A DNA stretch of 36,872 nt. Source: Oligosphaeraceae bacterium (GTDB lineage: Bacteria; Verrucomicrobiota; Lentisphaeria; Oligosphaerales; Oligosphaeraceae). The DNA lies in contig JAAYYJ010000293.1 of NCBI GenBank assembly GCA_012515455.1, forward strand, positions 1 to 36,872. The letters run 5' to 3'. Numbering within the stretch: position 1 is the first letter of the stretch; each line of letters starts with the position of its first letter. Of the stretch, positions 3,342-20,662 are shown one piece after another. The translations under genes and the position numbers were made by a program. Below the pieces are notes generated by a model. It worked only from the letters and a program-made list of their open reading frames with translations, searched no databases and was not told the origin of the DNA.

Positions 3342-4910
3342 ATGTGCATTGCAAAATCCCCGCTAATTTTCCTGTCGTTGGTACTCATCCTTTGCCCCCT
3401 GCGCCTCCCTGCGCAGTTTGAGGATATCCCGGCGGAAATCCGGCAGGCATGGCTGAGCGCCTATCTTCTGATTGAGAAAGCCGAGCAGCAGAGCAGCGCC
3501 GGAGATGTCTTAGGCGCGCTGGATTTATTGCGCCAGTCCTGGGAAACCCTGTCGCGGCTCCAGAAGGAACACCCGCGCTGGAACCCGGGCATGCTCGCTT
3601 TTCGGATGGAGAACTGCCGCCAGAAGATTCTAGCGCTGGAAGGCCGGGAGCAGGGCGCGATCGCAGCCATGCCCCGGGAGGAGCTGGAGAAATTTCTGCG
3701 CTCCGCCCGGGAGCGCCTGCGCCTGGCTCACCCCCTGAGCCAGGCATCACCGGTCAGCTCTGCCCCGGACTCGCCAGTGCCGCTGCCCGCCCAGATGGAT
3801 TTCTTGACTCGCCTGAATGCGGAAAAACAGCAGTACCAGGCCGAGAACAGCGATCTCAAGACCAGCCTGCAGGAGCTCAAGGCCAAGCTGGAACAGACTG
3901 AATTGCAGGCGCAGGCCTGGCGGCGCACTGCCGCCGGCATGGACAAGCTGCAGCAGGAAATCACCGCCCTCAAAGCCCAAAACCAGGAACTGGAGAGTTT
4001 CCGGCAAAAAGCCGTGCTTGAACTGCACGAACAGAGCAGCAAGGTCCATACCCTGACCCAGGAACTCAGCGGGGCCAAGACCGCACTGACAGAACTGCGC
4101 CGCACGCCTCAGCCCGACCTCTCCGGGGACAAAATTGCCGCAGCGCAACAGGCTGCCGCACAACAGGTCGCCGCCGCACAGCAGGCTGCGGCCCAGCAAG
4201 TCGCCGCCGCCAAGGCCGAATCCAGCCGTCTGGTCCAGGAACAATGGTCGGCCGCGCAGCAGCAGCTCAAAGACCTGCAAGGGCAGCTCCAGGGCTTACG
4301 CAACGAGCTCGAACAGGTGAAGGCGGCAGAACTGCGGCGCGAGAAGGAAAACCAAGCCCTGGCGGATTTTATTCAGAAGGCCATCAGTTTGGAACAAAGC
4401 GGGGAATGGTCCGCAGCAGCCAAACTCTGGCAACGCATTGCCAGCGCCCGCCCTGGTCACGTCCAGACTCTAGCCCGCATTCCGGTACTGCTGCAGCAGG
4501 CCGGCGAACCGACCCAGGCCGGACTGGCCCTCAATAATTATCTCAACCAGGCGGCCGGAGACTTCAATACTCTCCTCAGCTTGGGAGAATCCTGCCTGCA
4601 GGCTAATCAGCCGGCCTACGCCATCACATTCCTGAGCTGGTGCGCGCTCCTCCAGCCCGAAAACGTCCAAGCCAAAGCCGCACTGGGAATGGCCTACGCC
4701 GCCGCCGAAATGCCGCAGGCAGCCGAGAACTATTTGCGGCAGGCCCTGGCCGCGGACGCTGATTACCAGCCGGCCCTGACGGCGCTGGCCATGATCATGG
4801 CCACCGCCAAGCCGCCCCGGACGGCAGAAGCCAAGCAACTCTATCAGCGTGCCCGCACCGCCGGCGCCGGCGCTAACCCGATCCTAGAGGAATTGCTGCA
4901 GGAGCCATAA
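3342..4910 (+). CDS. Secreted TPR / coiled-coil protein
   Basis: 522 aa. It has an N-terminal signal-like segment (IFLSLVLILCPLRLPAQ) and a central Q/A/E/L-rich heptad-like region that includes AAAQQAAAQQVAAAQQAAAQQVAAAK. The C-terminus carries TPR-like repeats (..GMAYAAAEMPQAAENYLRQALAADADYQPAL..). Confidence 0.7.
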   Translation: MCIAKSPLIFLSLVLILCPLRLPAQFEDIPAEIRQAWLSAYLLIEKAEQQSSAGDVLGALDLLRQSWETLSRLQKEHPRWNPGMLAFRMENCRQKILALEGREQGAIAAMPREELEKFLRSARERLRLAHPLSQASPVSSAPDSPVPLPAQMDFLTRLNAEKQQYQAENSDLKTSLQELKAKLEQTELQAQAWRRTAAGMDKLQQEITALKAQNQELESFRQKAVLELHEQSSKVHTLTQELSGAKTALTELRRTPQPDLSGDKIAAAQQAAAQQVAAAQQAAAQQVAAAKAESSRLVQEQWSAAQQQLKDLQGQLQGLRNELEQVKAAELRREKENQALADFIQKAISLEQSGEWSAAAKLWQRIASARPGHVQTLARIPVLLQQAGEPTQAGLALNNYLNQAAGDFNTLLSLGESCLQANQPAYAITFLSWCALLQPENVQAKAALGMAYAAAEMPQAAENYLRQALAADADYQPALTALAMIMATAKPPRTAEAKQLYQRARTAGAGANPILEELLQEP

Positions 4911-5256
4911 TGCACCGCGGTCAGGCCAAGTCGTCGCTCTGACAGCGGTAGTTCTGCAGCACCGTCTTCCCGGCCTGAACGGTCGACGGAATCATCGGAC
5001 AGCGCAAATCATAGCGGTGCACAGTAAGGCAGACGTCCCCCAAGGACGGGGTGGGGACCAGTTGGTCGGATATCGGCCTACAGTACCTAAGCACCGGCAG
5101 GCGTGCATTCTCTGCACCGCAGATTGACCATACTCAACCTCAGCAGCGGAGGCAATCACCAGCTTACCGATAAATGCGGTCACCCTTGCTACTGCAGTCA
5201 GCCGCAAAACAGCGTTTGGTCTTGATCTGCGGCCTGGGATTATGCCCTTGCCCCGC

Positions 5257-6828
5257 TTACAACGCCAAGCCGAGTTCCTCGTCCAGGGAATCCAGGGCGG
5301 TTTTCTCCTCTTTGGCCATGTTCTTGGGCATCTTGTAAGTGGGCAGATAACGATAATAGACCTGCAGGCTCAGACAGCAGAGGGCAGTGGTATACCAGCG
5401 GTCATAGGCTCCGGGATTGCCGACCTTGCCGGTCTTGGGGTCAGGCTTCAGACCAGGCGGACATTCCCAATAACCTTCTTCTTTCTGATTGCTGACCACC
5501 ATCGGCGCAAATTTCTCGTTCCACTTGCGCCACGAGGACTGACCAGTATGGAACATCACCTGGGTTTCGTAATACCAGTGATACATCGGATTGGAATGTG
5601 CACCGCTGATCAGCAGTTTGGGATTTGACCAGATGATGGTGGGCAGATGCGTTTCCACGATCAGCTTGGAGACCGTCTTGGCTTCCTTGCAGCCGCCCTC
5701 GCCCAACAGCTGCAGACAAAGGGTGCCCGCGCCCTGCATGCCCCAGCTGCCGCCGCCAGGGGAAGCATAGCCCATGGGCTTGGTGGCGTTAGTCTTGGAA
5801 TAGGCGACTTGTTTGATGAAGCTGATCGCCCTGTCGATGGCTTTGTCTAAATCAGCGACACTGGCGCCCGAGACAAAACCGGCCTTCATGGCCTGGAACT
5901 GCCAGCCCGCGACCGACAAATCCCAGCGCTCGGCCTTGGCATAACTGTAATCGTAACCGCCGCTCTTCTGCTGGCCGTCAACCACCAGAAACAACGCCTT
6001 GTCCATGGCAGGCTTCAGATTCGGCAGTTTGGTCATGCCGTACGCTTCCGAAAGGGCATACGCCACAATGCCGTTGGTGTATGGCTCAATCTTGGGCTTC
6101 CCACCCGTTGTCTCAGGCAGACTCTCGACGTGCCGAATCAGGTACTGCATGGCATTCTGAACCGTCTGCCCATATTCTTCGCTGGTCGGCGTCTCACCAT
6201 GGGCCAGATAAGCCAGCAGACAGAGACCAGCCATGGCCGGACGCGAGCTGGGCCCCCAGGAGCCATCACTGTTCTGCGTCTTCTTCAGCCATTGCAAGGC
6301 CTTCACCACTGCCCGCTCGGTTGCGTCATTGCCGCCGAATTTGCGCCGCTGCTGGGTCCTCCCCTCGTTGGTGCGCCCGCCATACAGAGAAGACAACTTC
6401 AGGGGTGAATCATTGGCCCGGATATCCAGCACATCGGAAAAATTCATGGCGTCGTCAGTGGAGGCCATCTTGTCGCTGAAATCATCTACCGAGGCCACGT
6501 CGGTGACCTGCGCATCGCTGACGATATCCGGCCGTTCCACCGTGGGCACCACTTCCTCCGCGACCTCTTCGAGCTTCTCGAGCTTCTCGAGCTCCTTCTG
6601 GTCCAGCTCCTTGACCTCCAGTTCCTTCATTTCCAGCTCAATGGAGGCCCGGGTGGCTGTCGCTTCGGGCTCATAGAACAGAATTACCGAGCCCATCAGC
6701 AGGATATGCACCACCAGGGAAATCACCGGACCGATCATGCTCTCGAGCATTTTCCGGTGCTGGTACTCTGCCAGGATGGCATCGGCATCAAACGCCTGAA
6801 TCGGGCTTTGTTGGTTGTATTCTTCCAT
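5257..6828 (-). CDS. Membrane-anchored protein with a TonB/TolA-like N-terminal topology and a C-terminal QW-repeat alpha/alpha-toroid (prenyltransferase/squalene-cyclase-like) domain
   Basis: 523 aa. It has a single TM segment (MIGPVISLVVHILLMGSVILFY) followed by an E/K-rich spacer (ELEMKELEVKELDQKELEKLEKLEEVAEEVV). The C-terminal domain carries a QW-type motif (ALQWLKKTQNSDGSWG) and aromatic-rich toroid-like repeats. It is the last gene of the ExbB/ExbD operon. Confidence 0.75.
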   Translation of the reverse strand: MEEYNQQSPIQAFDADAILAEYQHRKMLESMIGPVISLVVHILLMGSVILFYEPEATATRASIELEMKELEVKELDQKELEKLEKLEEVAEEVVPTVERPDIVSDAQVTDVASVDDFSDKMASTDDAMNFSDVLDIRANDSPLKLSSLYGGRTNEGRTQQRRKFGGNDATERAVVKALQWLKKTQNSDGSWGPSSRPAMAGLCLLAYLAHGETPTSEEYGQTVQNAMQYLIRHVESLPETTGGKPKIEPYTNGIVAYALSEAYGMTKLPNLKPAMDKALFLVVDGQQKSGGYDYSYAKAERWDLSVAGWQFQAMKAGFVSGASVADLDKAIDRAISFIKQVAYSKTNATKPMGYASPGGGSWGMQGAGTLCLQLLGEGGCKEAKTVSKLIVETHLPTIIWSNPKLLISGAHSNPMYHWYYETQVMFHTGQSSWRKWNEKFAPMVVSNQKEEGYWECPPGLKPDPKTGKVGNPGAYDRWYTTALCCLSLQVYYRYLPTYKMPKNMAKEEKTALDSLDEELGLAL

Positions 6829-6885
6829 CTGTCACCTCAACAGCAGGGCGAGAACAGAGTAGCGTGCTTCCCCGGCAAGGCAGGA

Positions 6886-7275
6886 TCAGCGCAGAGTCAC
6901 CACATTCAGCTTGGTCAGACCAGCCCCCTGGCAGAGGTCCAGTACATTCACCAAATCCTGGGCTTTGGCACTGATGCTGACCTTGATGATCACCGTCAAA
7001 TCCGGGTCCCGGAAAGAATTCAGGGTGGTCTCCAGAGTGGCCAGGGACACACTGGTCCCGCGCAGGGAATACTGCCCGTCATAGACCTCGACTTCCAGCA
7101 GCTGCGGTTTGCTCTCGCTGGCTTTGGCACTGCCCGGTGTCGGCAGATTGATCGCCAGATGAGCCTCGGAAATCTCTTCCTTCTGGGTGATGATAAAATA
7201 AATCAGCAGCAGGAATACCACGTCGATCATGGACGACATCGGCACCGCTAGCTTGTCATCGTACTTTTTCCGCAT
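6886..7275 (-). CDS. exbD: ExbD/TolR-family biopolymer transport protein (paralog 2)
   Basis: 129 aa. The N-terminal TM carries the conserved Asp (PMSSMIDVVFLLLIYFII). Size and periplasmic domain are typical of the family. Confidence 0.85.
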   Translation of the reverse strand: MRKKYDDKLAVPMSSMIDVVFLLLIYFIITQKEEISEAHLAINLPTPGSAKASESKPQLLEVEVYDGQYSLRGTSVSLATLETTLNSFRDPDLTVIIKVSISAKAQDLVNVLDLCQGAGLTKLNVVTLR

Positions 7276-7297
7276 TTGTCGCTCCCCTTGCGCTGCC

Positions 7298-7708
7298 TCA
7301 ACCCTCTACCATGGCGGCAATTCTGACCCGGTACAAACCGACTCTGGCAGCACGCTGCATCACCCGGTCGATGTAATCAAATTTCGTGTTCCCATCACAG
7401 CGGATCAGTAGAGGCAGTGAGTCTCCGGCCTGGATTTTCAAGGCCAGGAGCATCTGCTCCAGCTGGTTCAAAGTAACCGGCTGCAAGGCGATATTGATCT
7501 GCCCGCGCTGATTGACATTGATGGTGACCATGCGGGGGTCATTGGTTTCAACCGCCGGAGACTTCTTGGCCTCAGCGAGGATAATGCTCTCATCGACCAT
7601 ATCCTTGTCAACCGCAGCGGTCACCACGAAGAATATGATCAGGAGAAAAACGATATCAATCATGGAGGTGATTGGCGTCTCCAGATCGTCGCCGCCTCGA
7701 TTGCGCAT
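7298..7708 (-). CDS. exbD: ExbD/TolR-family biopolymer transport protein (paralog 1)
   Basis: 136 aa. The TM carries the conserved Asp (PITSMIDIVFLLIIFFVV), and the gene lies directly downstream of the ExbB-like gene. Confidence 0.85.
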   Translation of the reverse strand: MRNRGGDDLETPITSMIDIVFLLIIFFVVTAAVDKDMVDESIILAEAKKSPAVETNDPRMVTINVNQRGQINIALQPVTLNQLEQMLLALKIQAGDSLPLLIRCDGNTKFDYIDRVMQRAARVGLYRVRIAAMVEG

Positions 7709-7768
7709 ATCTGTACCCTTTATTTAGATGGCCGGAAAACACTGCCCGTCCCAATCCGGACTGCGCCC

Positions 7769-8518
7769 TTATTCTTCCACTTCGGCTTTGCGCAAGGGCT
7801 TGATCAATTCCAGCACCGTGGCTTCCGATTCCAGAATCAAGCGTGTGGCGTTGTTGCGGAAATAAGTATAGAACAGCAGGGCGGGGACGGAAATCAGCAG
7901 CCCCACGCAAGTAGTCCAGAGCGCGGTGGAGATAGAGTTGGCCAACACCCGGGCTTTGGCTGCGCCGGTGGCGCTGGCCAGACCGGCAAAGGCCAGTACC
8001 ATGCCGACCACGGTGCCCATCAGGCCCAGCATAGGCGCAATCTGCCCGCAGATGTTCAGCAGGCCCACCCGCTGCATCAGCTTCTCGGTCTCCAAATCAG
8101 TACGGGAGGAGACCGCCTGCTGCACCACATCGTAGCCGTCATAGATATTGTCGAAGGCTTCCTTGAGGATGTTCGACAACGAGCCGGGATTGGCCTGGCA
8201 GGTGGCAATGGCAGTCTCGAGGTCGCCATTGGCCAAAGCCTGGCGCACTCCATCCACCAGCAGTGCCGGAATCAGCTTGTCTCGGCGCACGACCATGAAG
8301 CCATCGATGGCGAACCACAGCATCGCGAAGGAAGTGGCAAAGATACCGATCCAGATAATCAGATTGATGATGCTGCCGCCATAGAGGATATTCCACATGC
8401 CGCTGCCGGCAGGTGCGGCCTCCGCCTCAGCCGCAGCAGCGGCAGCTTCCTGAGCCATCACTCCGAGCTGCAGGACAAAAAAACTCAGCACGGCGATTTT
8501 TGCAGACAACGCTTTCAT
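7769..8518 (-). CDS. exbB: MotA/TolQ/ExbB-family proton channel
   Basis: The family signature is present (..APMLGLMGTVVGMVLAF..ISTALWTTCVGLLISVPALLFYTYF..). I prefer the internal ATG at 8518 (MKALSAKIAVLSFF...) because AAGGAGAG lies about 5 nt upstream; the ORF-track start is 8560. The N-terminus has a signal-like segment plus an Ala/Glu-rich stretch. Confidence 0.85.
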   Translation of the reverse strand: MKALSAKIAVLSFFVLQLGVMAQEAAAAAAEAEAAPAGSGMWNILYGGSIINLIIWIGIFATSFAMLWFAIDGFMVVRRDKLIPALLVDGVRQALANGDLETAIATCQANPGSLSNILKEAFDNIYDGYDVVQQAVSSRTDLETEKLMQRVGLLNICGQIAPMLGLMGTVVGMVLAFAGLASATGAAKARVLANSISTALWTTCVGLLISVPALLFYTYFRNNATRLILESEATVLELIKPLRKAEVEE

Positions 8519-8571
8519 CGATTCTCTCCTTAAGGTCATAAATGGGCAGAAAATAAACAATCAGTGATTTG

Positions 8572-9330
8572 TTATTGGTAGGCGGCGATTTTATCCACGC
8601 GCGGGTCGTTCAGCTCCCGCATCAGTTTAGTAGCCCTGGATTTGGCCATACTTCTGACCTCATCGACCTTCTTGTTGTTCTCAAACAGCATCAGCACCTT
8701 CAGATATTCCAGCACAGCCTGTTTCTTGTCACCTTTGGCCTCGGCCATTTCCCCGAACAGACAGAAGGCCTGCGCGGCTTTAGCCTCATCGGCGCTGACC
8801 ATCTGGCGTTTCAGCACGCTGTCCGCCTTGTCGTAATCCTTATCGGCGATGTAGATCTTGACCATTGAGGCTTCGAGCAGTTCACGCTGCTCTCCCGCCA
8901 GACGGTTGGCCGCAACCAGCACCCGCTTGGCCTCGGCGACCTTGTTGCCGGTCAGCAGCGCATCAGCGTGCATAGAGGCAATCACATTGCTCCAGCCCAG
9001 GTATTTGTACTTCGCAAACACGCCATCCGCCTGACTGATGACCTGGTCGTATTTCTTCTCGGCGAACAGCTGTTCCAGGGCCGCGACCTCCTTCGGCTTG
9101 CTGACAAAGCCCATCTTGTACTGCCCGGCTCGGAACGGCATCTTGAGCTTGCCGTCCACATCCAGAACCAGATTGCCCTGGTCATCGGCCTTCAGGGCCC
9201 GGCCGCTGATTTTGCGGTTGTCACTGGTGATGACGTAGCAGTCCTGCTTGCCTTGTGCCTGGGCCAAGCCTGGCGCACCGATTACCGCCAGCAACAACAG
9301 ACTGAGCATATACCGTTTACAATTCGCCAT
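8572..9330 (-). CDS. Secreted TPR-like protein
   Basis: 252 aa. It has a signal peptide (MLSLLLLAVIGAPGLAQAQ), a small N-terminal domain and helical TPR-like repeats. GGAGG lies about 9 nt upstream of the ATG. Confidence 0.7.
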   Translation of the reverse strand: MANCKRYMLSLLLLAVIGAPGLAQAQGKQDCYVITSDNRKISGRALKADDQGNLVLDVDGKLKMPFRAGQYKMGFVSKPKEVAALEQLFAEKKYDQVISQADGVFAKYKYLGWSNVIASMHADALLTGNKVAEAKRVLVAANRLAGEQRELLEASMVKIYIADKDYDKADSVLKRQMVSADEAKAAQAFCLFGEMAEAKGDKKQAVLEYLKVLMLFENNKKVDEVRSMAKSRATKLMRELNDPRVDKIAAYQ

Positions 9331-9408
9331 AGCGCATTTACCTCCGCATTTGCCTTATATATTTTCTGAATTGCTGCTGTTTTCCACCTGCCGGCAAGGG
9401 GCACCGAC

Positions 9409-12400
9409 TCAGTTCGCCAGGCGGCTGATTTCCGCCAGGTATTTCCCGCCACTGAACAGCGTTTTGTAACGTTTGACCATCTCGTTGACCTTCTCCTGCT
9501 CGCCCGCCAATGAGTACAGCTTCGCGCTGCCCACCAGTGCCCGTTCGATTAACTCCCGGTTCTCCGGAATCTTCGGGTCAGCCAGCAGGACAATCTGATA
9601 GTTGGACAGAGCAGCATTGCGCTTGCTCGGGTCATTGCTCTTCAGAATCGCATCAGCATAGAGACAGGAAGCCTGGTTGCGCATCAGGGGCGAGGTGGCG
9701 AACATCATCACGTCATAGAGGTCCTGCTCCAGGCCCGCCCAGTCCGGCGGATCGATGTTCGCTTTGGCTTCAGCCAGAATGAATTTGATCTCGAAAAAGA
9801 AATTACTGCGTTCATTCGCGGCCAGGATGCCCTCCAGAATTTTAATGGCCTCGGCATAGCGTTTGTTGCTGGCCAGGCTTTGCCCCAGGGCGAAGCTGGC
9901 GCGCTCCTTCTGCCCGCGGGTGATGGCAGGAGCATCGGGATGCTTCGGGTCATCAGCACGCTTCAGAATTTCCCGGTTGGCTACGCTGGCGGGGATGGGC
10001 AGACCGGCTTTAAGGCAGATATCCGAGACATAATACAAGTTCGCCAGGGCAATCTCCTCCGGCTTGCCCAGCAGTTTCTCAAACGCTTTGGCAGCCTCTT
10101 CCAGATTGCCGTTCTCGGCTTGGGCCCGCCCCAGCATAAACAGGGCTTTCTGGGTCGCGGGGTCTTTCGGGAATTCCGCCGCCAAACGACGCAGGACATC
10201 AGAGGCCTTAACCGGATCCTCGATATCAAACAAATAAATCGAACCTAAGCGAGACATGTTCTCCGGCGCCTTGGAAGAGGGATGCTGCTGCAGAAATTTC
10301 CCAAACCCTTCCACCGCCTTGCTCTTCAGGCTGTCGAACTCTTTTTTGGTCGGTTCATTGCCGGCCGTGACTTCCTCCAGAATCTTGCTGGCGGCGGCTA
10401 TGCCGGCACGGCTGTTTTCTGCCCGCTGGGCGAGATATTCGCCGCGCACTGCAATCTTCTCGCTCAGCAGTTTCTTGCGCGCGTCCTCAGCTTGGAAAGC
10501 AGCTTCAATTGCGCGCTTTAGTTCGTCCTGGGACGTCTTACGCTCCGCAACCGCTTTTTCCAAAATCCCGCCATAGACGCGGTTCAGGGACAGAGTTTTG
10601 CCGGCGGCGAGCTGCTCCGCCTCTACAATCTGCGCCTCGATTTTGGCCAGCGCGAGATCATTTTTCACCCGCAAGGCCTCGGCCTCGGCGGCAGTAACGT
10701 CCTCGGCCAGCTCAACCACCGCCCGCTCGAGGTTGCGGATTTCCGCCTGGGTCTGCTCGCTGCTGGCCTCCTTCTGGCGCACAAACGCGGCCTGGAAGAG
10801 CTCATTCATCTTCGTCGCCGCTTCGGCCAGCTGGTCGAGTTCCTTCTGCAGGTTTTCCTTCTCCTTGCCCTTGGCATCATCGACCCGGCTCTCCATCTGT
10901 GACTTCAACTCCTGCGCGGCCTGGCGTTCTGAGTCCGCGAGAGTCAAAGCCTTGTCGGCATCTTCCTGAGCCTTGCGCAAAGCCACGGCCTGGGCTGCGG
11001 ACTCCTGACCGCGCTTCTTAAGCTCGGCGATGCGTTCGCTGATTTCTTTGGCTTCGTCATTCAGCCGGGCCAGGCGTTTCTCAATCTTCGCTTTCTCCTG
11101 CACCGCATCCGCAGCCCGCTTCTCCTGGGTCAGGTTGTTGCCGACTAGCTCATTTTTTTTCTGCACCTCCAAGTCGGCAATGCGCTTGATGATGCTGCTC
11201 TGCAAGGTTTGCCGGTGGACCTGCTTCTCCGCCTCGCTCATCTTAGCCATATCTTCCGACACCGCCTCAATCTGCTGCGTAGCCAGGGCAGTAAAATCCA
11301 GCAGCATCTCGGCATAGGAATTCTGCAAGGCCGCGAGATTCTCGTCCAGGCTGTTTAGACTCAGCTTTGCCTGTTCCTGCTCGGCCTGTCCCTGGGCGAT
11401 GGTCTCTTCGAAGGCCTTGATGCGATCCTGCAGGACCTTCCTGCGATTTTTGGCGACCGTCATTTCCGGGCGGTATCTCTCCGCTGCCAAATCGTAAGCC
11501 CAGGGCAGGAAGGACAGGCAGTCCTCACGCAACCGGCCCGCGACCTCGCTTTTCAGATCAAAACCGCTGTCTTTGTCGCTGAGGACTTTCTGCAGCTGCT
11601 CGAAATGCCCCACCGCATCCAGAGGATGATCGCTGTAAATCAGCAAATAGGCACCCTGGAATTTCGCCTGCAGGCGGTCGTTGGCGTAACGCGGATTCGA
11701 TTCGCTCTCGAAATAGTTCAGGAAGTACTCTATGGCCTTCTCCCGTTCCCCGACCGAATCATAGCACCAGGCCAGCTTATACTGTGAACGCACACCCGTC
11801 GGGAAAGTCCCGAAGACTTCGACCATGCGCTGATATTTGGGTATCGCCGACCGGAATGCCGCCTGGGCCTCTTCGTGGGCCTTGGCTTTGTCGCTGGCGT
11901 TAGCAGCCTGGTTGGCCCGCTCAGCCAGACGACTCGCCTGCGCGAACGCATTCTCCGCCACCGTGAAGGCAATTTCCGAAGCCTTGGGGTGGGACGGGGC
12001 GGCATCGACAAATTTATCGAAAGCGGACAGAGCCCGGCCCTCGTATTCGGTTTTCAGGGAGGGCTTCTTCTCGTTCTGGGCCTTGGTCCAAAGCATCACT
12101 CCGAAACGCAGGGCGGCATCAGCGGTGCCTTCTGCGCGGGGGGCGACCGCGCTCAAATAATCCAGGAGCGCATCAGCGCCATTGAGGTCATCCATCTCCG
12201 CCAGGCACATCACCAGGCGCAACCCCACCTCCGGGACACGTTTGCCGGTACGTCCCAGCCGCAGTGCCTCCAGGCAAGGCTGGAATGCACTCTGATAGTT
12301 CTTCTGCTGCAGGAAAGCATCCGCCTTTTCCAAGCTGGCCGAAACAATCGCGGCTGAGCCGCTTTGTTTGAGCTCCAGCTTCTCGCCGAATTTTGCTTCC

Positions 12401-13500
12401 GAGAACTTGCTGCAGGCATCGTGTTCGGTGATGGCCTGATTCTGGAAGGCGCTGTCGGGATACTCGTCGAGCAGTTTTTCCAGATATTTGGCTGCGCCCC
12501 GGATTTGCACCTTGGCCTTGTCTGTCTCGCCCTTGGCATAAGTTGTCACGGCGTGACTGGCGAAAGCAATAGCCTTGTAGTACATTGCTTCGACCAGTGG
12601 CGACTTGGGGGAATTCTCCAGCCCCTGCATCTTGGCCAGCTCCTCCAGACGCGGGGTGATCATATCAATGGCTTTGACGGCATTGGCAAAATCATCGATT
12701 TTGCCAATATCCTTGGCTTTTTCCTTTTCTTTAGGCAGCAGCGGCAGAAGCTTGCCCCGCCCGCGGATAATGTATGACCGCGCCAGCTGCACCGCACCAG
12801 CAGCAGCCACCCCGTCACGGATAAACTGCAGGTTCTCCAAACCTTTGATGGCTGCAGCCAGGGCCTTGTCATCAATCTTGCCGCTGGACTTCAGCTTATT
12901 CTCCTCGTTGTCAATGGCGGTCTGAAGCTTCAGAAATTCCATCTGCCGTTCATCGACCGCGCCCTTGATGTTGGCCAGCAACTCCAGAACCTTGGCCGCC
13001 TCGGCCGGCTTGTTCATCGATTTCAGGACGTAGTTGTAGATCATCACCGCCTGTTTGAATTTGTTGGCGTCGGATTTCTTGTTCGAAGCCGGCTGCTGAT
13101 TTTTGGCAAAATATTCTTTATAGACCTTGGCTGCCTCAGGCCATTGCTTGCGGGCGGCAAAAACCTGCGCCTGCAACAGCAGCACTTCGCCCGCCAAGGG
13201 GGAGTTCTTGGGAATAGCCTTCAAGGCGGTATCGGCGTCTTTACTGCGTCCGACGGTATAGAAAATACGGGCCTTCTCCAGATTGATCAGGTCTTTCTGC
13301 TCGGGATATTTTTTCTGCATCTGCCCGAGCTGCATCTCAGCGTAGTCATTGAATTCAATGCGGCTGAGCTCCTGCAGGAAAGTCAAATCCAGTTCGAATT
13401 CATCGATGGCCAAGAGCAGGCTGCTGCAGAACAACATCAGCACCAAGAAAAAAGACCACCGCCTGGAGGACTTTCCCGCTGTCAATATCTTATTGCCCAT
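9409..13500 (-). CDS. Giant (1363 aa) signal-anchored TPR, long coiled coil, TPR protein
   Basis: It has an N-terminal hydrophobic segment (WSFFLVLMLFCSSLLLA) and TPR-like repeats on both sides. The central E/K/Q/A-rich heptad-like segment is about 360 residues (roughly nt 10370-11460). It is the first gene of the ExbB/ExbD operon. Confidence 0.8.
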   Translation of the reverse strand: MGNKILTAGKSSRRWSFFLVLMLFCSSLLLAIDEFELDLTFLQELSRIEFNDYAEMQLGQMQKKYPEQKDLINLEKARIFYTVGRSKDADTALKAIPKNSPLAGEVLLLQAQVFAARKQWPEAAKVYKEYFAKNQQPASNKKSDANKFKQAVMIYNYVLKSMNKPAEAAKVLELLANIKGAVDERQMEFLKLQTAIDNEENKLKSSGKIDDKALAAAIKGLENLQFIRDGVAAAGAVQLARSYIIRGRGKLLPLLPKEKEKAKDIGKIDDFANAVKAIDMITPRLEELAKMQGLENSPKSPLVEAMYYKAIAFASHAVTTYAKGETDKAKVQIRGAAKYLEKLLDEYPDSAFQNQAITEHDACSKFSEAKFGEKLELKQSGSAAIVSASLEKADAFLQQKNYQSAFQPCLEALRLGRTGKRVPEVGLRLVMCLAEMDDLNGADALLDYLSAVAPRAEGTADAALRFGVMLWTKAQNEKKPSLKTEYEGRALSAFDKFVDAAPSHPKASEIAFTVAENAFAQASRLAERANQAANASDKAKAHEEAQAAFRSAIPKYQRMVEVFGTFPTGVRSQYKLAWCYDSVGEREKAIEYFLNYFESESNPRYANDRLQAKFQGAYLLIYSDHPLDAVGHFEQLQKVLSDKDSGFDLKSEVAGRLREDCLSFLPWAYDLAAERYRPEMTVAKNRRKVLQDRIKAFEETIAQGQAEQEQAKLSLNSLDENLAALQNSYAEMLLDFTALATQQIEAVSEDMAKMSEAEKQVHRQTLQSSIIKRIADLEVQKKNELVGNNLTQEKRAADAVQEKAKIEKRLARLNDEAKEISERIAELKKRGQESAAQAVALRKAQEDADKALTLADSERQAAQELKSQMESRVDDAKGKEKENLQKELDQLAEAATKMNELFQAAFVRQKEASSEQTQAEIRNLERAVVELAEDVTAAEAEALRVKNDLALAKIEAQIVEAEQLAAGKTLSLNRVYGGILEKAVAERKTSQDELKRAIEAAFQAEDARKKLLSEKIAVRGEYLAQRAENSRAGIAAASKILEEVTAGNEPTKKEFDSLKSKAVEGFGKFLQQHPSSKAPENMSRLGSIYLFDIEDPVKASDVLRRLAAEFPKDPATQKALFMLGRAQAENGNLEEAAKAFEKLLGKPEEIALANLYYVSDICLKAGLPIPASVANREILKRADDPKHPDAPAITRGQKERASFALGQSLASNKRYAEAIKILEGILAANERSNFFFEIKFILAEAKANIDPPDWAGLEQDLYDVMMFATSPLMRNQASCLYADAILKSNDPSKRNAALSNYQIVLLADPKIPENRELIERALVGSAKLYSLAGEQEKVNEMVKRYKTLFSGGKYLAEISRLAN

Positions 13501-13595
13501 CTATGCGTCCTTTGCATTATGCCAATACTGAGCCGGCAGAAAAAATGCTACGCATCGACAAACAACTCTGTGCGAGTACTGAATAACGATAGAGA

Positions 13596-13674
<79 letters not shown>

Positions 13675-14260
13675 ACTTCTTTCTCAAATTGCCAGACAGA
13701 CAGGGCCAACTCTATGCACCAACTCTGTCAGCACATATAATGTAGCTCGTCTTTCGCTAACAACAACCCCGCACAGCGAAATTTATCGCCAACAAAGCAT
13801 TTTTCGCCTTTTCTGCCACCATCTCCAGCGTGAACACCGTTGCGGCAGGAGACAAAAAACACCAACGGACATAGTATAATCATCATGGCGGAAAATGTCA
13901 AGAAAGAAAAACAAATTATCTCGCTAGGGAATCAATTATTGCCTGATTATAGCCAATACAACGCCCGCGGGCAGGACATGCCCGGGATTCCTTGTCCTTT
14001 ATTGGTCAAAGGATGGAAATTCAAAGAGTTATGGGTAAAATGCGTTTCGGCCCTTGTCGGACCCCCAAAAACAGCTACATTTTGTCCGCATCAACTCGGT
14101 GGGCTCTCAGCCCACCCTACCGAGGGGGGCCTCCAGCCCTAATATTGACGCGCGCGCGAGATGCAAATCAGGGCCGGGACCACGCGGAAACAACCCATTT
14201 TCTGCCAGGAGCGAGTCCCCGACATGGCGAGTCCCCAGGGACAGGGGGGTGCCCCGGCCA

Positions 14261-14814
14261 AGTGGTACAGATGGGGCTGCAGCGGGTCAACAGGACTGGC
14301 GGTGGCAGGGCCGCCGGTGGCACAGATGGGGCCGCAGCGGCCAACAGGACTGGCGGCGGCAGGGTCGCCGGTGGCACAGATGGGGCCGCAGCGGGATAAC
14401 AGGACTGGCGGCGCCAGGGCCGCCGGTGGTACAGATGGGGCCGCGGCGGGATAACAGGACTGGCGGCGCCAGGGCCGCCGGTGGTACAGATGGGGCCGCA
14501 ACGGGATAACAGGACTGGCGGCGCCAGGGCCGCCGGTGGCACAAATGGCGCCGCAACGGGATAACAGGACTGGCGGCGCCAGGGCCGCCGGTGGCACAAA
14601 TGGCGCCGCAATGGGTCAACAGGACTGGCGGCGGCAGGGCCGCCGGTGGCACAGATGGAGCCGCAACGGGTTAACAGGACTGGTGGCGCCAGGGACGCCG
14701 GTGGCACAGATGGGGCCGCAACGGGATAACAGGACTGGCGGCGCCAGGGCCGCCGGTGGCACAAATGGCGCCGCAATGGGTCAACAGGACTGGCGGCGGC
14801 AGAGCCGCCGTGGG
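14261..14814. repeat. Tandem array of ten head-to-tail 55-bp units (one unit is 54 bp), no spacers
   Basis: Unit starts are at 14261, 14316, 14370, 14425, 14480, 14535, 14590, 14645, 14700 and 14755. The consensus is GGTGGCACAGATGGGGCCGCARCGGGATAACAGGACTGGCGGCGCCAGGGCCGCC. ORFs are open in all frames on both strands across the array. Confidence 0.9.
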
Positions 14815-14888
14815 CGGTTGATTGGCGCCCCAGCGGCAGCAATTGCAGGCGCGGCTCGGTCGCCGCCGCTGTCCCCGGAGGATATTTT

Positions 14889-16085
14889 TCACGCCCGGGT
14901 CTGCGCCAGGATCACCGCTGCGTTGTTGCCGCCGATGCCAGCGGAATTCACCAGTGCGGTGGAGAATTCCTTGCAGCGGGGCTGGCCGGCCAGACTGTCC
15001 AGGAAGGCGCAATCGGGGTCGATTTCCTGCAGATTCAGGGTGGGCGGAATAATACCATGGCGCATCGCCAGCAAGGTGATGACGGCCTCCGCCAGACCGG
15101 CTGCGCCTAGCAGATGCCCGAGCTGGGATTTGTGGGCCGCGACGGTCAGCCCGGACAGGCGCTCTCCGAAGATGTTCCGCAGTGCGGCCGCTTCGGTCTT
15201 GTCATTCGCGACGGTGCTGGTGGCGTGGGCGCAGACATGCTCAATGTCAGCCGCGTCCAGGCCAGACTGCCGCAGAGCCTCGTGCATGACTTCCCGCGAG
15301 CCCTCGGCTTCGGGCCTGGGGGCAGTAAGATGGAAGGCGTTGTTGTTGGTGGCCGCACCGAGCAAGTACTGCGCCGGGGCAGCCGACGCAGCCCGGTCGT
15401 CCTCACGCTCCAGCAGCACCGCCGCCGCTCCTTCACTGAAGATGGTGCCCGAGCGCCGCCGGTCGAAGGGACGCATGGTATCACTGGTTATGGTGCGCAA
15501 GTTGTGCAGGCCGCACCAGCAGAACTCACTCAGGATGTCGAAGGCGATGACCAGCACCCGCGCCGCCCGGCCAGTGCGGAGGATATCCCAGCCGGCGGCC
15601 AAAGCCGCGGTCCCTGAGGCGCAGGAGAAGGACAGCTGCTGACAGCCGCCGGCACAGCCCAGCGAGCGGGCCAATCCCGGCAGGAAATCCTCCCAGTGCT
15701 GCTGTGAAGCCAGTGAGACCGCCCCGAGGTCCTGCTTCTCCCGCCAGAGCCACTCCTGGGTCTCCCAGGCTCCAAAATTGCTGGCCAGCACCAATGCCAG
15801 GGCGCTGTCCGGCCGGGCCGGAGCCCCCTCCGGCAATCCCAGGGCCTGCCGGCCGGCCTGCTTAGCCAGTGCGCCGGCTAGCTCATCCTCGGGATAAGCA
15901 TTGCGCAGAAACTCATCCTCGACTTCGGACAGCATCCCCGCCTTTTGCTGCTGATAAGGGGCCGCGGGAAATCTCCATATCGGGCGGAAGGCGTCCTGCC
16001 CGGCACACATGCGCTGGTATACCTCCTCGGGATTGCGCCCCAAGCTGCAGCACAAACCTTGACCCACAAAACGTATTTTTGCCAT
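14889..16085 (-). CDS. Beta-ketoacyl-[ACP] synthase (FabF/FabB-type condensing enzyme, Cys-His-His)
   Basis: 398 aa. The active-site Cys lies in FSCASGTAAL, with His motifs CAHATST and HKSQLGHLLGAAG. The C-terminus NSAGIGGNNAAVIL is typical of the family. AGGAG lies about 9 nt upstream. Confidence 0.85.
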   Translation of the reverse strand: MAKIRFVGQGLCCSLGRNPEEVYQRMCAGQDAFRPIWRFPAAPYQQQKAGMLSEVEDEFLRNAYPEDELAGALAKQAGRQALGLPEGAPARPDSALALVLASNFGAWETQEWLWREKQDLGAVSLASQQHWEDFLPGLARSLGCAGGCQQLSFSCASGTAALAAGWDILRTGRAARVLVIAFDILSEFCWCGLHNLRTITSDTMRPFDRRRSGTIFSEGAAAVLLEREDDRAASAAPAQYLLGAATNNNAFHLTAPRPEAEGSREVMHEALRQSGLDAADIEHVCAHATSTVANDKTEAAALRNIFGERLSGLTVAAHKSQLGHLLGAAGLAEAVITLLAMRHGIIPPTLNLQEIDPDCAFLDSLAGQPRCKEFSTALVNSAGIGGNNAAVILAQTRA

Positions 16086-16103
16086 TCTATCCGCTCCTGA
16101 CCA

Positions 16104-17378
16104 TTATTTTTGCGGTCCATCCGGACCGGCCACTTCATGCTTGCCTGGTTCTTGCGCCGGTGGCCACCAGCCGCGCCGCAACGCATCCGCTCCGAGCTGC
16201 TGGCGCAGACGATCCACCGCCTGATCGAGACAGGCGTTGCGCCGCTGCTCCTGAGCGGGCATGGCCACGCCGGGCTCATCTGCGAACAACAACTGTTGCT
16301 GCGGCCCCGGCACAGGCTCCTGCCCCGGGGCACAGAGTGCGCTGACACCAAACCCAACCAGTCGGACCGGCTCCCCGGGACTGAACTGCGACCACAGTGC
16401 TCCGGCACAATGCAGCAGCACCCGGTCCGCCTGACTGCGGGGCCGGATCGGCATCTGTCGGCTCACGGTGCGAAAATCCTGATACCGCAGTTTTACCGTT
16501 GCGGTCCCGGCCAGCAGTCCGGCCTGGCGCAGGCGTTGCCCCACGACCTCGGCCAGTCTCCACAAGGCCATGCGGACCTGTTCAGGGTCCCGGCAATCGA
16601 CTGGGAAAGTCTCCTCGTGGGAGATAGATTTCTCCTGCGCTTCCTCCGGCTGCACCGCACGGTTGTCCCAGCCGTGCGCCAGGGCCTTGATCTGCTCTCC
16701 TGAGGTATTCCCCAGCATCCGCCTCAGGGCTTCGACGCTGGTTTTCTGCAGGTCGCCAATCCGGCGCAAAGAGTATTTCGCCAGCACTTGTGCTGTCTTC
16801 GGCCCGACGCCCCAGATTTTACCCACCGGCAGCGGGGCCAGAAAGGCCTGCACCTCGGCCGGGTCCACCGGCACCACCGTGAGGCCGTCCGGCTTATGCA
16901 AATCACTGGCCAGCTTGGCCAGGAACATATTCGAAGCCACGCCGACGGAGGCGGTTAGTCCGGTGGTCGCCCTGATCCGCTCCTTCAGCTGCCGCGCTGT
17001 CTCGACTGGGTCCGCAGGCAGGCCATGGACATGGGATAGGTCCAGGAAGGCTTCGTCAATCGAGGCCGGCTGCACGCATGGGGTGAATGCCCGCAATACC
17101 CCCATGACCTGGGCCGAGAGCTCGGCGTAGCGCTCATAGCGTCCGGGAACAAAAATGCCCTGGGGGCAGAGGCGGAACGCGGTCCTTGACGGCATGGCCG
17201 AATGGACCCCGAAACGGCGCGCTTCATATGAGCAGGTGGATACCACGCCCCGCTGATCGGGAGCCGCCCCGACGATCACCGGCCGGCCCCGCCATTCGGG
17301 GTGATCCAGCTGCTCCACCGAAGCGAAGAATGCATCCAGATCGAGATGGAGAATGTGATTGCTTGCGGCTGTGTTCAT
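16104..17378 (-). CDS. dinB: DNA polymerase IV (Y-family translesion polymerase)
   Basis: 424 aa. The N-terminus ILHLDLDAFFASVEQ and the motif VVSTCSYEARRFGV are present, and a clamp-binding-like QQQLLF lies about 65 residues before the C-terminus. Confidence 0.9.
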   Translation of the reverse strand: MNTAASNHILHLDLDAFFASVEQLDHPEWRGRPVIVGAAPDQRGVVSTCSYEARRFGVHSAMPSRTAFRLCPQGIFVPGRYERYAELSAQVMGVLRAFTPCVQPASIDEAFLDLSHVHGLPADPVETARQLKERIRATTGLTASVGVASNMFLAKLASDLHKPDGLTVVPVDPAEVQAFLAPLPVGKIWGVGPKTAQVLAKYSLRRIGDLQKTSVEALRRMLGNTSGEQIKALAHGWDNRAVQPEEAQEKSISHEETFPVDCRDPEQVRMALWRLAEVVGQRLRQAGLLAGTATVKLRYQDFRTVSRQMPIRPRSQADRVLLHCAGALWSQFSPGEPVRLVGFGVSALCAPGQEPVPGPQQQLLFADEPGVAMPAQEQRRNACLDQAVDRLRQQLGADALRRGWWPPAQEPGKHEVAGPDGPQK

Positions 17379-17725
17379 GAGAAAAAGCGGCCGGGGGTCA
17401 GCAACGCCTGCAGCAGTCCGGGCAAACTCCGGTCCTGCTGCAAATATAACCGCAGTTCCGGCAATAACAATGCCCCGCAGCCATGTCCCTGGGGATTATC
17501 GGTCAACTTACTGCAGCGCCCTGGCGCCGGCACAATATTGCAGCATTACCTGGCTGAGAGGAAAAGGGTCCCTGCACCGGAAGCGGCAGGATTCCTTCTG
17601 CACCGGTCTGATTGACTGAGGCGCTGGCTTATTGTCCCTTGCGAATATATATTACCGCAAAAGGCCCTGCTCCAGATGCCTGACTGAGGCGGCAGCTGTC
17701 GGCCAAACAACAAAGGATACACGAG

Positions 17726-18496
17726 ATGGAAATTAACAACCTGGAAAAATTCACCGCCAAGATTGCGGCTGGTCGCCTGTGCCTGGGCAGCGTCATCACC
17801 CTGTCTGATCCGGTGGTCAGCGAGCTGGCCGGCGACTGCGGCCTGGATTTCACCTGGATCGACGCGGAACACGCGCCGTTCTCCCTGGAGAACATCCAGG
17901 GGCATATCATGGCCCTGCGCGGAACCGACTGCGCTCCGCTGGTGCGCGTCGCCTGGAACGACTTCGCGATCATCAAACCGGTGCTCGATCTGGCTCCCGC
18001 CGGAATCATCATCCCCATGGTCTGCACGGCTGCGGAAGCCGCAGAAGCGGTCGCGGCCTGTAAATACCCGCCCCGGGGCCGGCGCGGCTGCGGCGTCCGC
18101 CGCGCCAACCGTTACGGGCAGATGCCCTTCGCCGAATACCTGCGCCATGCGGATGCCGAACCGATGGTCATCATCCAGATCGAGCATATCGACGCGGTCA
18201 GGAACCTGGATGCGATTTTGCAGGTCCCGGGCATTGACAGCATCTGCATCGGCCCCTGCGACCTCTCCGGTTCCATGGGTAAGCTTAACCAGTGTGACGA
18301 CCCGGAGGTGGTGACGGTGATAGAGGAAATCTGCCGCAAGACGCTGCAGGCCGGTCTCATCCTCGGTACCGCTTCAGCGCCCTATTCCACTTGGAAGAAA
18401 CGCGGTCTGCACTGGATGGCCATCACCAGCGACTGCGGCAGCATGAGCGCCACTTACCGGCGCATCCTGGCCGAAGCCTCCGCAGAGCAGTCATAA
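17726..18496 (+). CDS. HpcH/HpaI-family 2-keto-3-deoxy-acid aldolase
   Basis: 256 aa. Family patterns are present (..DFTWIDAEHAPF.., ..IIIPMV.., KYPPRGRRG, ..IQIEH..AV.N...I..VPGID...IGP.DLS). Confidence 0.8.
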   Translation: MEINNLEKFTAKIAAGRLCLGSVITLSDPVVSELAGDCGLDFTWIDAEHAPFSLENIQGHIMALRGTDCAPLVRVAWNDFAIIKPVLDLAPAGIIIPMVCTAAEAAEAVAACKYPPRGRRGCGVRRANRYGQMPFAEYLRHADAEPMVIIQIEHIDAVRNLDAILQVPGIDSICIGPCDLSGSMGKLNQCDDPEVVTVIEEICRKTLQAGLILGTASAPYSTWKKRGLHWMAITSDCGSMSATYRRILAEASAEQS

Positions 18497-20454: not shown

Positions 20455-20662
20455 CTTCTGCTCCTGTGTGAATTAATTTTTCGTCTGCAGTACCCTCTGC
20501 AGGCCTTTAGTTTACTCTCAAAAAACCTGCTTGCAAGCCGGCACCCCAAAAATCCTTGTCGCTGCGAATGCAATAATCAATACTGCAATTCGTTATATTA
20601 TCAGTGTGCGGCAAACTGCCGAACCAATTTTCTCGCCAGAATAAATTAAAAGGAACACCACG

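Follow-up and report, generated by a model that had tools for sequence, protein, structure and literature searches.

An ExbB-ExbD-ExbD Operon of PVC Bacteria Encoding a Barrel-Headed Candidate Transducer and Two Tetratricopeptide Repeat Proteins

A Six-Gene Operon in an Oligosphaeraceae Genome

The operon considered here occupies positions 5257–13500 of contig JAAYYJ010000293.1 (assembly GCA_012515455.1) from an Oligosphaeraceae bacterium, a member of the Planctomycetes-Verrucomicrobia-Chlamydiae (PVC) superphylum. The whole stretch of DNA that was analyzed, positions 1–36,872 of the forward strand, is referred to as the window. Listing of its open reading frames (ORFs) revealed six tightly packed ORFs, all on the minus strand, which encode a giant and a small tetratricopeptide repeat (TPR) protein, one ExbB/TolQ-like channel subunit, two ExbD/TolR-like subunits, and a 523-aa single-pass protein (Table 1). 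With the exbB start set at ATG 8518, the intergenic gaps are 78, 53, 60, 22, and 57 bp, in agreement with a first-pass annotation, made from the sequence alone, that had described six codirectional genes separated by 22–78 bp. No terminators above shuffle expectation were found inside the operon. The same annotation portrayed a motor wired to TPR giants rather than to a partner of the TonB/TolA type. This portrayal held in part, in that the partners are noncanonical and the TPR genes are conserved along with the motor genes, while the 523-aa protein emerged as the best candidate for the partner itself. A search for work on ExbD together with a prenyltransferase-like cluster in PVC bacteria found nothing relevant, and no description of the cluster was found in the accessible literature.

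Table 1. Coordinates of the operon, the domains of its largest products, and other features of the window.
Feature	Residues	Positions	Strand	Description
Gene 1		9409–13500	minus	1363-aa envelope protein, TPR/coiled-coil/TPR
Gene 1, N-terminal helix	15–31	13408–13458	minus	Signal or anchor helix
Gene 1, helical repeats	~40–680	11461–13383	minus	TPR-like helical-repeat region, ~640 residues
Gene 1, coiled coil	~685–1045	10366–11448	minus	~360 residues
Gene 1, C-terminal TPRs	~1055–1363	9412–10338	minus
Gene 2		8572–9330	minus	252-aa secreted protein, β domain and TPR-like repeat
Gene 3		7769–8518 (ORF 7769–8560)	minus	ExbB/TolQ-like stator channel subunit, 249 aa from ATG
Gene 4		7298–7708	minus	ExbD/TolR paralog 1, 136 aa
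Gene 5		6886–7275	minus	ExbD/TolR paralog 2, 129 aa
Gene 6		5257–6828	minus	523-aa single-pass barrel protein, candidate TonB/TolA-like transducer
Gene 6, membrane helix	31–53	6670–6738	minus	Contains Ser37-x3-His41
Gene 6, linker	~54–150	6379–6669	minus	Disordered and acidic, ~100 residues
Gene 6, barrel	~151–500	5329–6378	minus	(α/α)6 barrel
Gene 6, C-terminal tail		5260–5343	minus	Conserved, acidic/hydrophobic, ending ...LDSLDEELGLAL
tRNA-Pro(CGG)		13597–13674	minus	96 bp upstream of operon, same strand
Promoter-like site		13873–13901	minus	TTGACA-17-TATACT, 11/12 consensus matches, upstream of tRNA-Pro and operon; weak
Wzy-type ligase-like gene		22578–24602		9 kb from operon

The Stator: One ExbB and Two ExbD Subunits

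Pfam assigned the product of gene 3 to the MotA_ExbB family (PF01618; E = 1.7e-25, 89.6 bits against a cut-off of 22.9) and those of genes 4 and 5 to the ExbD family (PF02472; E = 4.7e-22 for paralog 1 and 9.8e-22 for paralog 2). The membrane-helix aspartate, Asp18, is kept in both ExbD paralogs (SMIDIVF and SMIDVVF), so that family assignment and sequence both confirm the stator operon as first annotated. The ORF of gene 3 opens at TTG 8560; ATG 8518 is the likely start, yielding a protein of 249 aa, the same length as its homologs from two related loci (L002 and L081). The N-terminus of ExbB resembles a signal peptide and is followed by an Ala-rich extension, and the protein has three membrane helices. 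The N-terminus and extension recall the “long ExbB” type described for Serratia (PMC9008036).

Comparisons with characterized stators placed the subunits at similar distances from the Ton and Tol systems. ExbB matched TolQ (E = 2e-9) and ExbB (E = 7e-9) in the PDB about equally closely, and its NCBIfam matches to tolQ (E = 4e-20) and exbB (E = 8e-13) both fell under the cut-off. ExbD1 was about equally distant from ExbD (E = 6.5e-6) and TolR (E = 1.9e-5) among PDB proteins, and its best NCBIfam match was TolR, with the tolR and exbD equivalogs all under cut-off. The two ExbD paralogs match each other at only E = 1e-9, which suggests that the duplication is old, and the order of their genes is constant in related loci, paralog 1 always coming first.

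A Candidate Transducer With an (α/α)6 Barrel Head

The 523-aa protein was initially regarded as an anchor, a description that falls short of its Ser-x3-His helix, linker, and barrel head. Alignment of 66 homologs revealed a conserved cytoplasmic N-terminus preceding the membrane helix, for which the positive-inside rule indicates an N-in topology. His41 is invariant in 66/66 of these homologs and Ser37 is conserved in at least 90%. Ser-x3-His at the opening of a single N-in membrane helix is a signature common to TonB (Ser16/His20) and TolA (Ser18/His22), and it is required for coupling to ExbB/ExbD and TolQ/TolR. The motif is present in 56 of the 84 barrel-family members of the fetched loci.

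The alignment also showed the linker to be Glu/Lys-rich and then acidic, with the conserved motif DFSD..ASTD..MDFS.VLD...SPLKLS.LYGGR at residues 105–150, and the domain that follows to contain about 50 invariant residues, many of them aromatic. AlphaFold2 (AF2) prediction from the 66 sequences returned predicted local distance difference test (pLDDT) values above 90 for residues ~155–500 and below 50 for residues 60–75 and 91–143. The head is confidently modeled as an (α/α)6 barrel, of the kind known from terpene cyclases, GH76 enzymes, and sugar epimerases. Its Foldseek matches in the PDB included AprG (a sugar-binding transaldolase), MstE (a type II terpene cyclase), and squalene-hopene cyclase, along with GH76 mannanases and cellobiose or GlcNAc 2-epimerases, with target TM-scores of ~0.6 and sequence identities of 10–16%. 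Beyond the sequence YYRYLPTYK, the Lentisphaeria and Kiritimatiellia proteins end in a tail of ~25–30 residues, spanning residues 496–523 in the window protein, the last of which alternate between acidic and hydrophobic (DEELGLAL in the window; DIEIEIL, DDVVVDVI, and GLIIE in related loci). Speculatively, this tail and the acidic linker motif are candidate ligands for TPR grooves, or might add a strand to the β-sheet of a partner.

A canonical TonB or TolA domain was looked for in the 523-aa protein and not found; neither the TonB C-terminal domain (PF03544) nor TolA domain III matched any of the six operon proteins in Pfam or NCBIfam searches. The same Pfam method does detect a true TonB_C protein in a related Verrucomicrobiales locus (L086). 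Pfam scans of 20 other large ORFs of the window found no TonB_C, TolA, TolB, Pal/OmpA, or TonB-dependent receptor, consistent with the first-pass statement that the window lacks a TonB C-terminal domain, TolA domain III, TolB, Pal, and a TonB-dependent receptor. Because the Ser-x3-His motif, a position immediately after exbD-exbD, a disordered linker, and a globular periplasmic head are combined in one polypeptide, the 523-aa protein is the best candidate for the TonB/TolA-type transducer of this motor, judging from its sequence features. The kind of head that it carries is not known to have been described for transducers of the Ton/Tol type.

Two Exported TPR Proteins

The 1363-aa product of gene 1 was matched by several Pfam TPR families, including TPR_6 and TPR_7, and by TPR_16 above cut-off (E = 3e-12). 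A composition scan of residues ~685–1045 revealed nearly no Pro, Gly, or aromatic residues and an abundance of E, K, Q, A, L, and R, and this segment is considered a coiled coil because its composition fits one. The YbgF/CpoB TPR model TIGR02795 matched residues 1061–1144 only, with a score of 43.4 bits against a cut-off of 90.1 (E = 4.5e-11). The 252-aa product of gene 2 consists of a signal peptide (residues 1–25), a five-strand β domain (29–75), and a TPR-like repeat (80–251), for which Pfam returned weak matches to TPR_15 and TPR_8 (E = 3e-3, under the cut-offs). Single-sequence AF2 prediction reproduced the five-strand β domain, followed by ten repeat helices, with a mean pLDDT of 72 and values of 70–95 in the helices. 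Foldseek matched this model to generic TPR proteins only, among them, weakly, the PflA/PflB scaffold chain 9hmf_K of Campylobacter (E ~1e-2). PDB sequence searches with the giant and the small TPR protein found nothing or designed TPRs only. Both TPR proteins are predicted to be exported.

Conservation of the Cluster

A barrel-family alignment was compared with one genome per GTDB species, which confirmed at least 571 loci, and the best 79 of these were surveyed. They originate from Lentisphaeria, Kiritimatiellia (including Pontiella), and Verrucomicrobiota (Chthoniobacterales, Opitutae, and Akkermansiaceae-type), and the full order giant-small TPR-ExbB-ExbD-ExbD-barrel occurs in ~26 of the 79. 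Called-gene tables contain the same six genes for Luteolibacter flavescens, Prosthecobacter fusiformis, a 4-Mb Lentisphaerae-type genome, and loci L084 and L086. The six-gene order is thus conserved across PVC genomes of the Lentisphaeria, Kiritimatiellia, and Verrucomicrobiales.

The TPR proteins diverge fast, and pairwise BLAST comparisons of them were uninformative. Using hhalign, a Lentisphaeria/Kiritimatiellia profile of the giant aligned with a 905-aa Luteolibacter protein (probability 97.3, E = 2e-11), and that of the small TPR protein aligned with a 297-aa Luteolibacter protein over 217 columns that include the β domain (probability 96.7, E = 4e-10). This profile-to-sequence comparison supports homology across classes and thereby the co-conservation of the TPR genes with the motor. 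In L086, an operon at 14208–16520 on the minus strand encodes a TonB_C protein (Pfam E = 1.3e-17), a short ExbB, an ExbD, and a small coiled-coil protein; it lies 3–5 kb from the six-gene cluster, on the other strand. Because this canonical TonB-ExbB-ExbD operon is nearby, the cluster is an additional and distinct system in L086. In that genome the cluster is thus not simply the sole Tol or Ton locus, and across related genomes its TPR genes are conserved with it. A short ExbB-ExbD pair is also located near the cluster in L014 and L033.

In Kiritimatiellia, the barrel gene is followed directly by MutL and then by SerS and TilS, a core-genome setting with no polysaccharide utilization locus. 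A conserved downstream gene of this class, designated C5, had been entertained as a seventh member of the cluster and was dropped when it proved to be MutL, a housekeeping neighbor. Three Kiritimatiellia-type loci contain a gene for a pseudopilin resembling protein G of the type II secretion system (T2SS; Pfam T2SSG, E = 3e-16) adjoining the cluster, at 3682–4335 in L014, as a 232-aa gene just upstream of the giant in L019, and at 14751–15413 in L033. Mucin uptake by Akkermansia needs a pilus-like locus, MUL2, together with the MUL1 locus discussed below. Pseudopilin-like genes are very numerous in PVC genomes, and the adjacency may therefore be a matter of chance. The L033 contig carries the ExbB-ExbD-ExbD-barrel block twice (4585–7984 and 9976–13375) with identical scores, representing either a recent tandem duplication or an assembly artifact.

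Stand-Alone Barrel Paralogs

The barrel family is large. Among 1.84 billion cluster representatives (50% identity), 8135 belong to it at E ≤ 1e-3, a number that falls to 4446 at E ≤ 1e-10 and to 468 at E ≤ 1e-30. Many of its members are encoded as stand-alone or tandem genes without adjacent exbBD genes, and these mostly keep the Ser-x3-His motif. A rough neighbor-joining tree intermixes the stand-alone and stator-linked copies and places the window protein in a linked Lentisphaeria clade. A similar scattering is seen among tonB paralogs and not for tolA, which is a single gene. Paralog neighborhoods were abandoned as a clue to function, being heterogeneous and mostly housekeeping in content. 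The sole recurrent pair of neighbors was a PSCyt1/PSCyt2/PSD1 gene (DUF1549/DUF1553, ~1100 aa) with a DUF1501 gene (~480 aa), a combination typical of PVC bacteria that was seen beside barrel paralogs in only a few loci of Chthoniobacterales-type (Spartobacteria) or Roseibacillus origin (L067, L068, L071, and L074). In L083 (8001–17845), a 614-aa stand-alone paralog is followed on the same strand by genes for an 831-aa TPR protein, TamB (1260 aa), and an Omp85/POTRA protein, a neighborhood that hints at a link with outer-membrane biogenesis.

Proposed Mechanism and Output

The reading that we favor, with moderate confidence, is that the operon encodes a PVC-specific transducer of proton motive force (pmf) of the Ton/Tol class, in which the output head is new and TPR proteins provide a scaffold. 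In such a machine, ExbB would form a pentameric channel around an ExbD1/ExbD2 heterodimer, and proton flow by way of the ExbD aspartates would power conformational work on that helix of the 523-aa protein which contains Ser-x3-His. The latter would span the periplasm by means of its linker, presenting the barrel head to a partner or ligand, while the two TPR proteins would build a periplasmic scaffold and may dock on acidic peptide motifs in the linker and C-terminus of the transducer. The stand-alone barrel paralogs might serve as alternative transducers on one motor, in the manner of multiple TonB proteins.

As to the task of the machine, energized uptake of large glycans across the outer membrane is plausible, and we put it forward tentatively, short of calling it probable. 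It is favored because of the TonB-like pattern of paralogs, the sugar-enzyme-like fold of the head, the glycan-degrading habits of the hosts, and a precedent in Akkermansia. We know of no SusC/SusD-type route in these PVC bacteria, which include Akkermansia, marine fucoidan degraders, Kiritimatiellia, and gut Victivallales. PVC bacteria consume complex sulfated glycans and mucin on a large scale and accumulate large glycans in the periplasm. The precedent is MUL1 of Akkermansia muciniphila (Amuc_0543–0548), a locus required for mucin uptake and competitive gut colonization, in which mul1A (Amuc_0544) is described as a mucin transport gene.

A broader version of this idea is rather doubtful. 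It would make the barrel-headed proteins a third major branch of Ton/Tol transducers, confined to PVC bacteria, in which one motor and TPR scaffold serves many transducers whose (α/α)6 heads bind glycans or outer-membrane partners. Such a system would power TonB-receptor-independent “selfish” uptake of polysaccharides and mucin in Verrucomicrobiota, Kiritimatiellia, and Lentisphaerota, with MUL1 as a divergent member.

Several observations weigh against a TonB-like transducer that serves nutrient uptake. Of the cluster-type ExbB proteins aligned from loci L002–L080, 31/31 have Thr, Gln, His, or Met (Thr in the window) in place of the third-helix glutamate of ExbB/TolQ, with the consequence that the proton path may differ, while Thr148 and Thr181 of E. 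coli have invariant counterparts in 31/31. The numbering (Glu176, Thr148, and Thr181) follows E. coli ExbB, and alignment with TolQ (Glu173) gives the same replacement. By these sequence criteria, the cluster-type ExbB proteins appear to form a stator subfamily of their own, in which the proton path may be altered. Furthermore, a subfamily of stator-linked barrel proteins does not contain Ser-x3-His. A profile of the N-terminal 54 positions retrieved no TonB or TolA from the PDB, only chance matches to a transporter helix, so that the likeness to TonB and TolA lies at the level of motif and architecture and is not demonstrable homology. ExbB and ExbD1 are slightly nearer to the TolQ/TolR than to the ExbB/ExbD models. 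Neither the operon nor the window encodes an outer-membrane partner. The operon has housekeeping-type neighbors (tRNA-Pro, a ketoacyl synthase [KAS] gene, and DinB) and does not lie in a locus for carbohydrate-active enzymes, a setting no less compatible with a constitutive function in the envelope than with nutrient uptake. Finally, searches with an Akkermansiaceae-type barrel protein, Luteolibacter ExbB, and P0152 retrieved no match identifiable as Akkermansia, and MUL1 is compared here by annotation.

Alternative Explanations

The main alternative to glycan uptake is outer-membrane upkeep of the Tol type. The operon would then replace Tol-Pal as the PVC counterpart of TolQ-TolR-TolA-CpoB, with the barrel protein acting as TolA and the giant as CpoB, and would use pmf for outer-membrane attachment, division constriction, or lipid balance. 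We judge this unlikely, although the best NCBIfam and PDB matches of ExbB are to TolQ and the best NCBIfam match of ExbD1 is to TolR, for these margins over ExbB are small and all scores are under the family cut-offs. The giant combines a coiled coil with TPRs in the manner of CpoB, whose model its C-terminal TPRs weakly match, yet no TolB, Pal, or TolA domain III was found. One cluster per locus in a housekeeping neighborhood, observed in three classes, and the presence of a separate canonical TonB system in L086 both suit a Tol-like function, whereas the many stand-alone barrel paralogs are unlike the single tolA. The paralog next to a TPR protein, TamB, and Omp85 in L083 points in the same direction as the Tol-like matches, but it is one case among >40 stand-alone paralogs.

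The operon could instead encode an energized machine for export or assembly, concerned with exopolysaccharide, surface proteins, or outer-membrane biogenesis, in which the giant is a scaffold comparable to the TPRs of PelB, BcsC, and PgaA. Polysaccharide export typically involves large TPR scaffolds in the periplasm, and the link of one barrel paralog to TamB and Omp85 would be in keeping with such a role. It is nevertheless improbable, since the operon contains no synthase, glycosyltransferase, porin, or secretin. The window does include a Wzy-type ligase-like gene, but this lies 9 kb away and no such neighbor recurs in the surveyed related loci; the pseudopilin-like genes adjoining the cluster in three Kiritimatiellia loci may, as noted, be there by chance.

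A further possibility is that the 523-aa protein is a membrane-anchored periplasmic enzyme, either a terpenoid cyclase/prenyltransferase or a glycan-active enzyme, that is co-transcribed with the motor and not energized by it. Database names encourage this reading: the homologs, of which the best matches are 79–94% identical and place the window in Lentisphaerota, come from metagenome-assembled genomes of Lentisphaeria, Victivallales, Oligosphaeraceae, and Kiritimatiellaeota and carry the names “terpene cyclase/mutase family protein” or [quoted passage not shown] So do the Foldseek matches to terpene cyclases, GH76 enzymes, and sugar epimerases, the many invariant polar and aromatic residues, and weak matches to squalene-cyclase repeats (Pfam E = 2.4e-4; NCBIfam E = 7.7e-6). 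These scores, however, are far under the enzyme-family cut-offs (SQHop_cyclase_C, 20.7 bits versus 26.1; TIGR01787, 24.8 versus 322.7), and the low identity to the structural matches likewise speaks against the enzyme reading. DxDD is absent from the window protein and occurs in only 2/66 family members, and neither DDxxD nor the paired Asp of the GH76 type was found in the barrel; two QW-like structural motifs (QNSDGSW and QKEEGYW) are present. Given the missing catalytic motifs and low scores, the enzyme names are probably misleading. A predicted periplasmic site would also be ill-suited to isoprenoid diphosphate chemistry. Coupling to the motor is favored by the invariant Ser-x3-His of the membrane helix and by a gene position that stays fixed behind exbD-exbD in three classes, leaving the enzyme reading very improbable. 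Searches of Pfam and NCBIfam brought up no model specific to either the barrel protein or the cluster.

Least credible of all is a motor for surface motility or cargo transport resembling Agl-Glt, which would drive TPR-rich envelope proteins along the cell. The first-pass annotation had drawn this analogy, and the one-plus-two stator composition and the large TPR/coiled-coil proteins of the operon speak for it. That composition, however, is equally found in ordinary Bacteroidetes Ton clusters, no Glt-like partner, TonB_C-bearing GltG/GltJ analog, or outer-membrane β-barrel gene is present in the operon or window, and many cluster hosts (Victivallales, Kiritimatiellia) are non-motile cocci or rods. 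A defense-system reading was dropped when none of the six operon proteins (0/6) matched the PADLOC anti-phage families, which include Zorya with its MotAB-like stators.

Read as a Ton/Tol-class transducer, the operon is a concrete candidate for the supply of energy to the PVC outer membrane during glycan uptake. Should it instead stand in for Tol-Pal, the system would reveal how the outer membrane is maintained in these phyla. Either outcome would widen the known outputs of 5:2 ion-driven motors. The barrel family amounts to thousands of sequence clusters that are currently, and probably wrongly, labeled “terpene cyclase/mutase” or “prenyltransferase.”

Surroundings of the Operon in the Window

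Outside the operon, the genes of the window are housekeeping in character and include SecDF, HrpB, DinB, KAS, GH88, a Wzy-like protein, Gmk, Cmk, and NadC; no further paralogs of any of the six operon proteins were found among them. The promoter-like site upstream of tRNA-Pro is a consensus match only, one of 6 such sites found where 3.5 ± 2.1 were expected, and read-through from a tRNA-Pro promoter might reach the operon. A 522-aa ORF at 3342–4910 on the plus strand converges on the barrel gene; Pfam gave it no more than a weak match to a short coiled coil, and it is not kept beside the cluster in related loci. Within 12001–17000, G+C content is 0.53–0.58 over the operon and 0.65–0.67 in the adjoining KAS/DinB region, where AT skew flips its sign. 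Five ORFs of 200–266 aa (523–1212, 1384–2046, 17546–18187, 18542–19342, and 20507–21109) have no Pfam match at E ≤ 1e-3.

Comparison With Known Systems

The head of the 523-aa protein (residues ~151–500) shares its fold and its QW-like motifs with the terpenoid cyclase/prenyltransferase toroids and with GH76, AGE, and AprG proteins. It differs from these enzymes in the absence of DxDD, DDxxD, and the catalytic Asp pair and in being membrane-anchored, predicted to be periplasmic, and linked to a stator. The PflA/PflB proteins that surround MotAB in Campylobacter offer a parallel of another sort, namely TPR proteins that position a 5:2 stator in the periplasm; no flagellar genes occur here, and the TPR match is generic.

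The AglRQS motor of Myxococcus also combines one TolQ-like with two TolR-like subunits and works with TPR-rich envelope partners. The transducer head of the present operon is a barrel, in contrast to the Agl-Glt system, and neither Glt homologs nor TonB_C-bearing GltG/GltJ or the outer-membrane families of the GltA/B/H/K type are found in the operon or window.

The resemblance to Tol-Pal lies in stator subunits marginally nearer to TolQ/TolR, in a housekeeping genomic context, in the Ser-x3-His motif and long charged helical domain II of TolA, and in CpoB, which is itself a periplasmic coiled-coil and TPR protein. The giant, however, is 5x the size of CpoB, with TPRs flanking the coiled coil on both sides; there are two TolR-like subunits instead of one and many transducer paralogs, and TolA domain III, TolB, and Pal were not found in the operon or window.

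With TonB-ExbB-ExbD, the operon has in common an ExbB-family channel, ExbD subunits with the membrane aspartate, and a transducer gene placed right after exbD. Like TonB, the candidate transducer consists of a single N-in helix with Ser-x3-His, a long flexible linker, and a globular periplasmic head, and it has multiple stand-alone paralogs and a TPR gene in the same cluster. A TPR gene is found as well in the exbB-exbD-exbD-tonB-TPR clusters of the Bacteroidetes type and in the Vibrio TonB2 cluster, where it encodes TtpD. The differences concern the head, a barrel of ~350 residues as opposed to the ~80 residues of TonB_C; the linker, which is acidic and Glu/Lys-rich instead of Pro-rich; the operon ExbB, in which the third-helix glutamate is missing; the TonB-dependent receptor, none of which was found in the window; and the coexistence of the cluster in L086 with canonical TonB as a separate operon.

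In MUL1, Amuc_0543 to Amuc_0545 are annotated as hypothetical, Amuc_0546 as ExbD/TolR, Amuc_0547 as hypothetical, and Amuc_0548 as MotA/TolQ/ExbB, followed by endonuclease III (Amuc_0549), and the locus has no annotated TonB. Amuc_0547, which lies between the two stator genes, may be a second ExbD. According to their annotation, the two systems differ in that the hypothetical genes of MUL1 come after the stator genes, with nothing between endonuclease III and exbB, and one paper found no MUL1 synteny in aquatic Akkermansiaceae. They are alike in belonging to the same superphylum, in the location of ExbB/ExbD genes beside genes for hypothetical proteins, and in the endonuclease III gene that flanks both MUL1 and the Luteolibacter cluster. 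Judged by annotation, MUL1 appears to be the closest studied PVC system.

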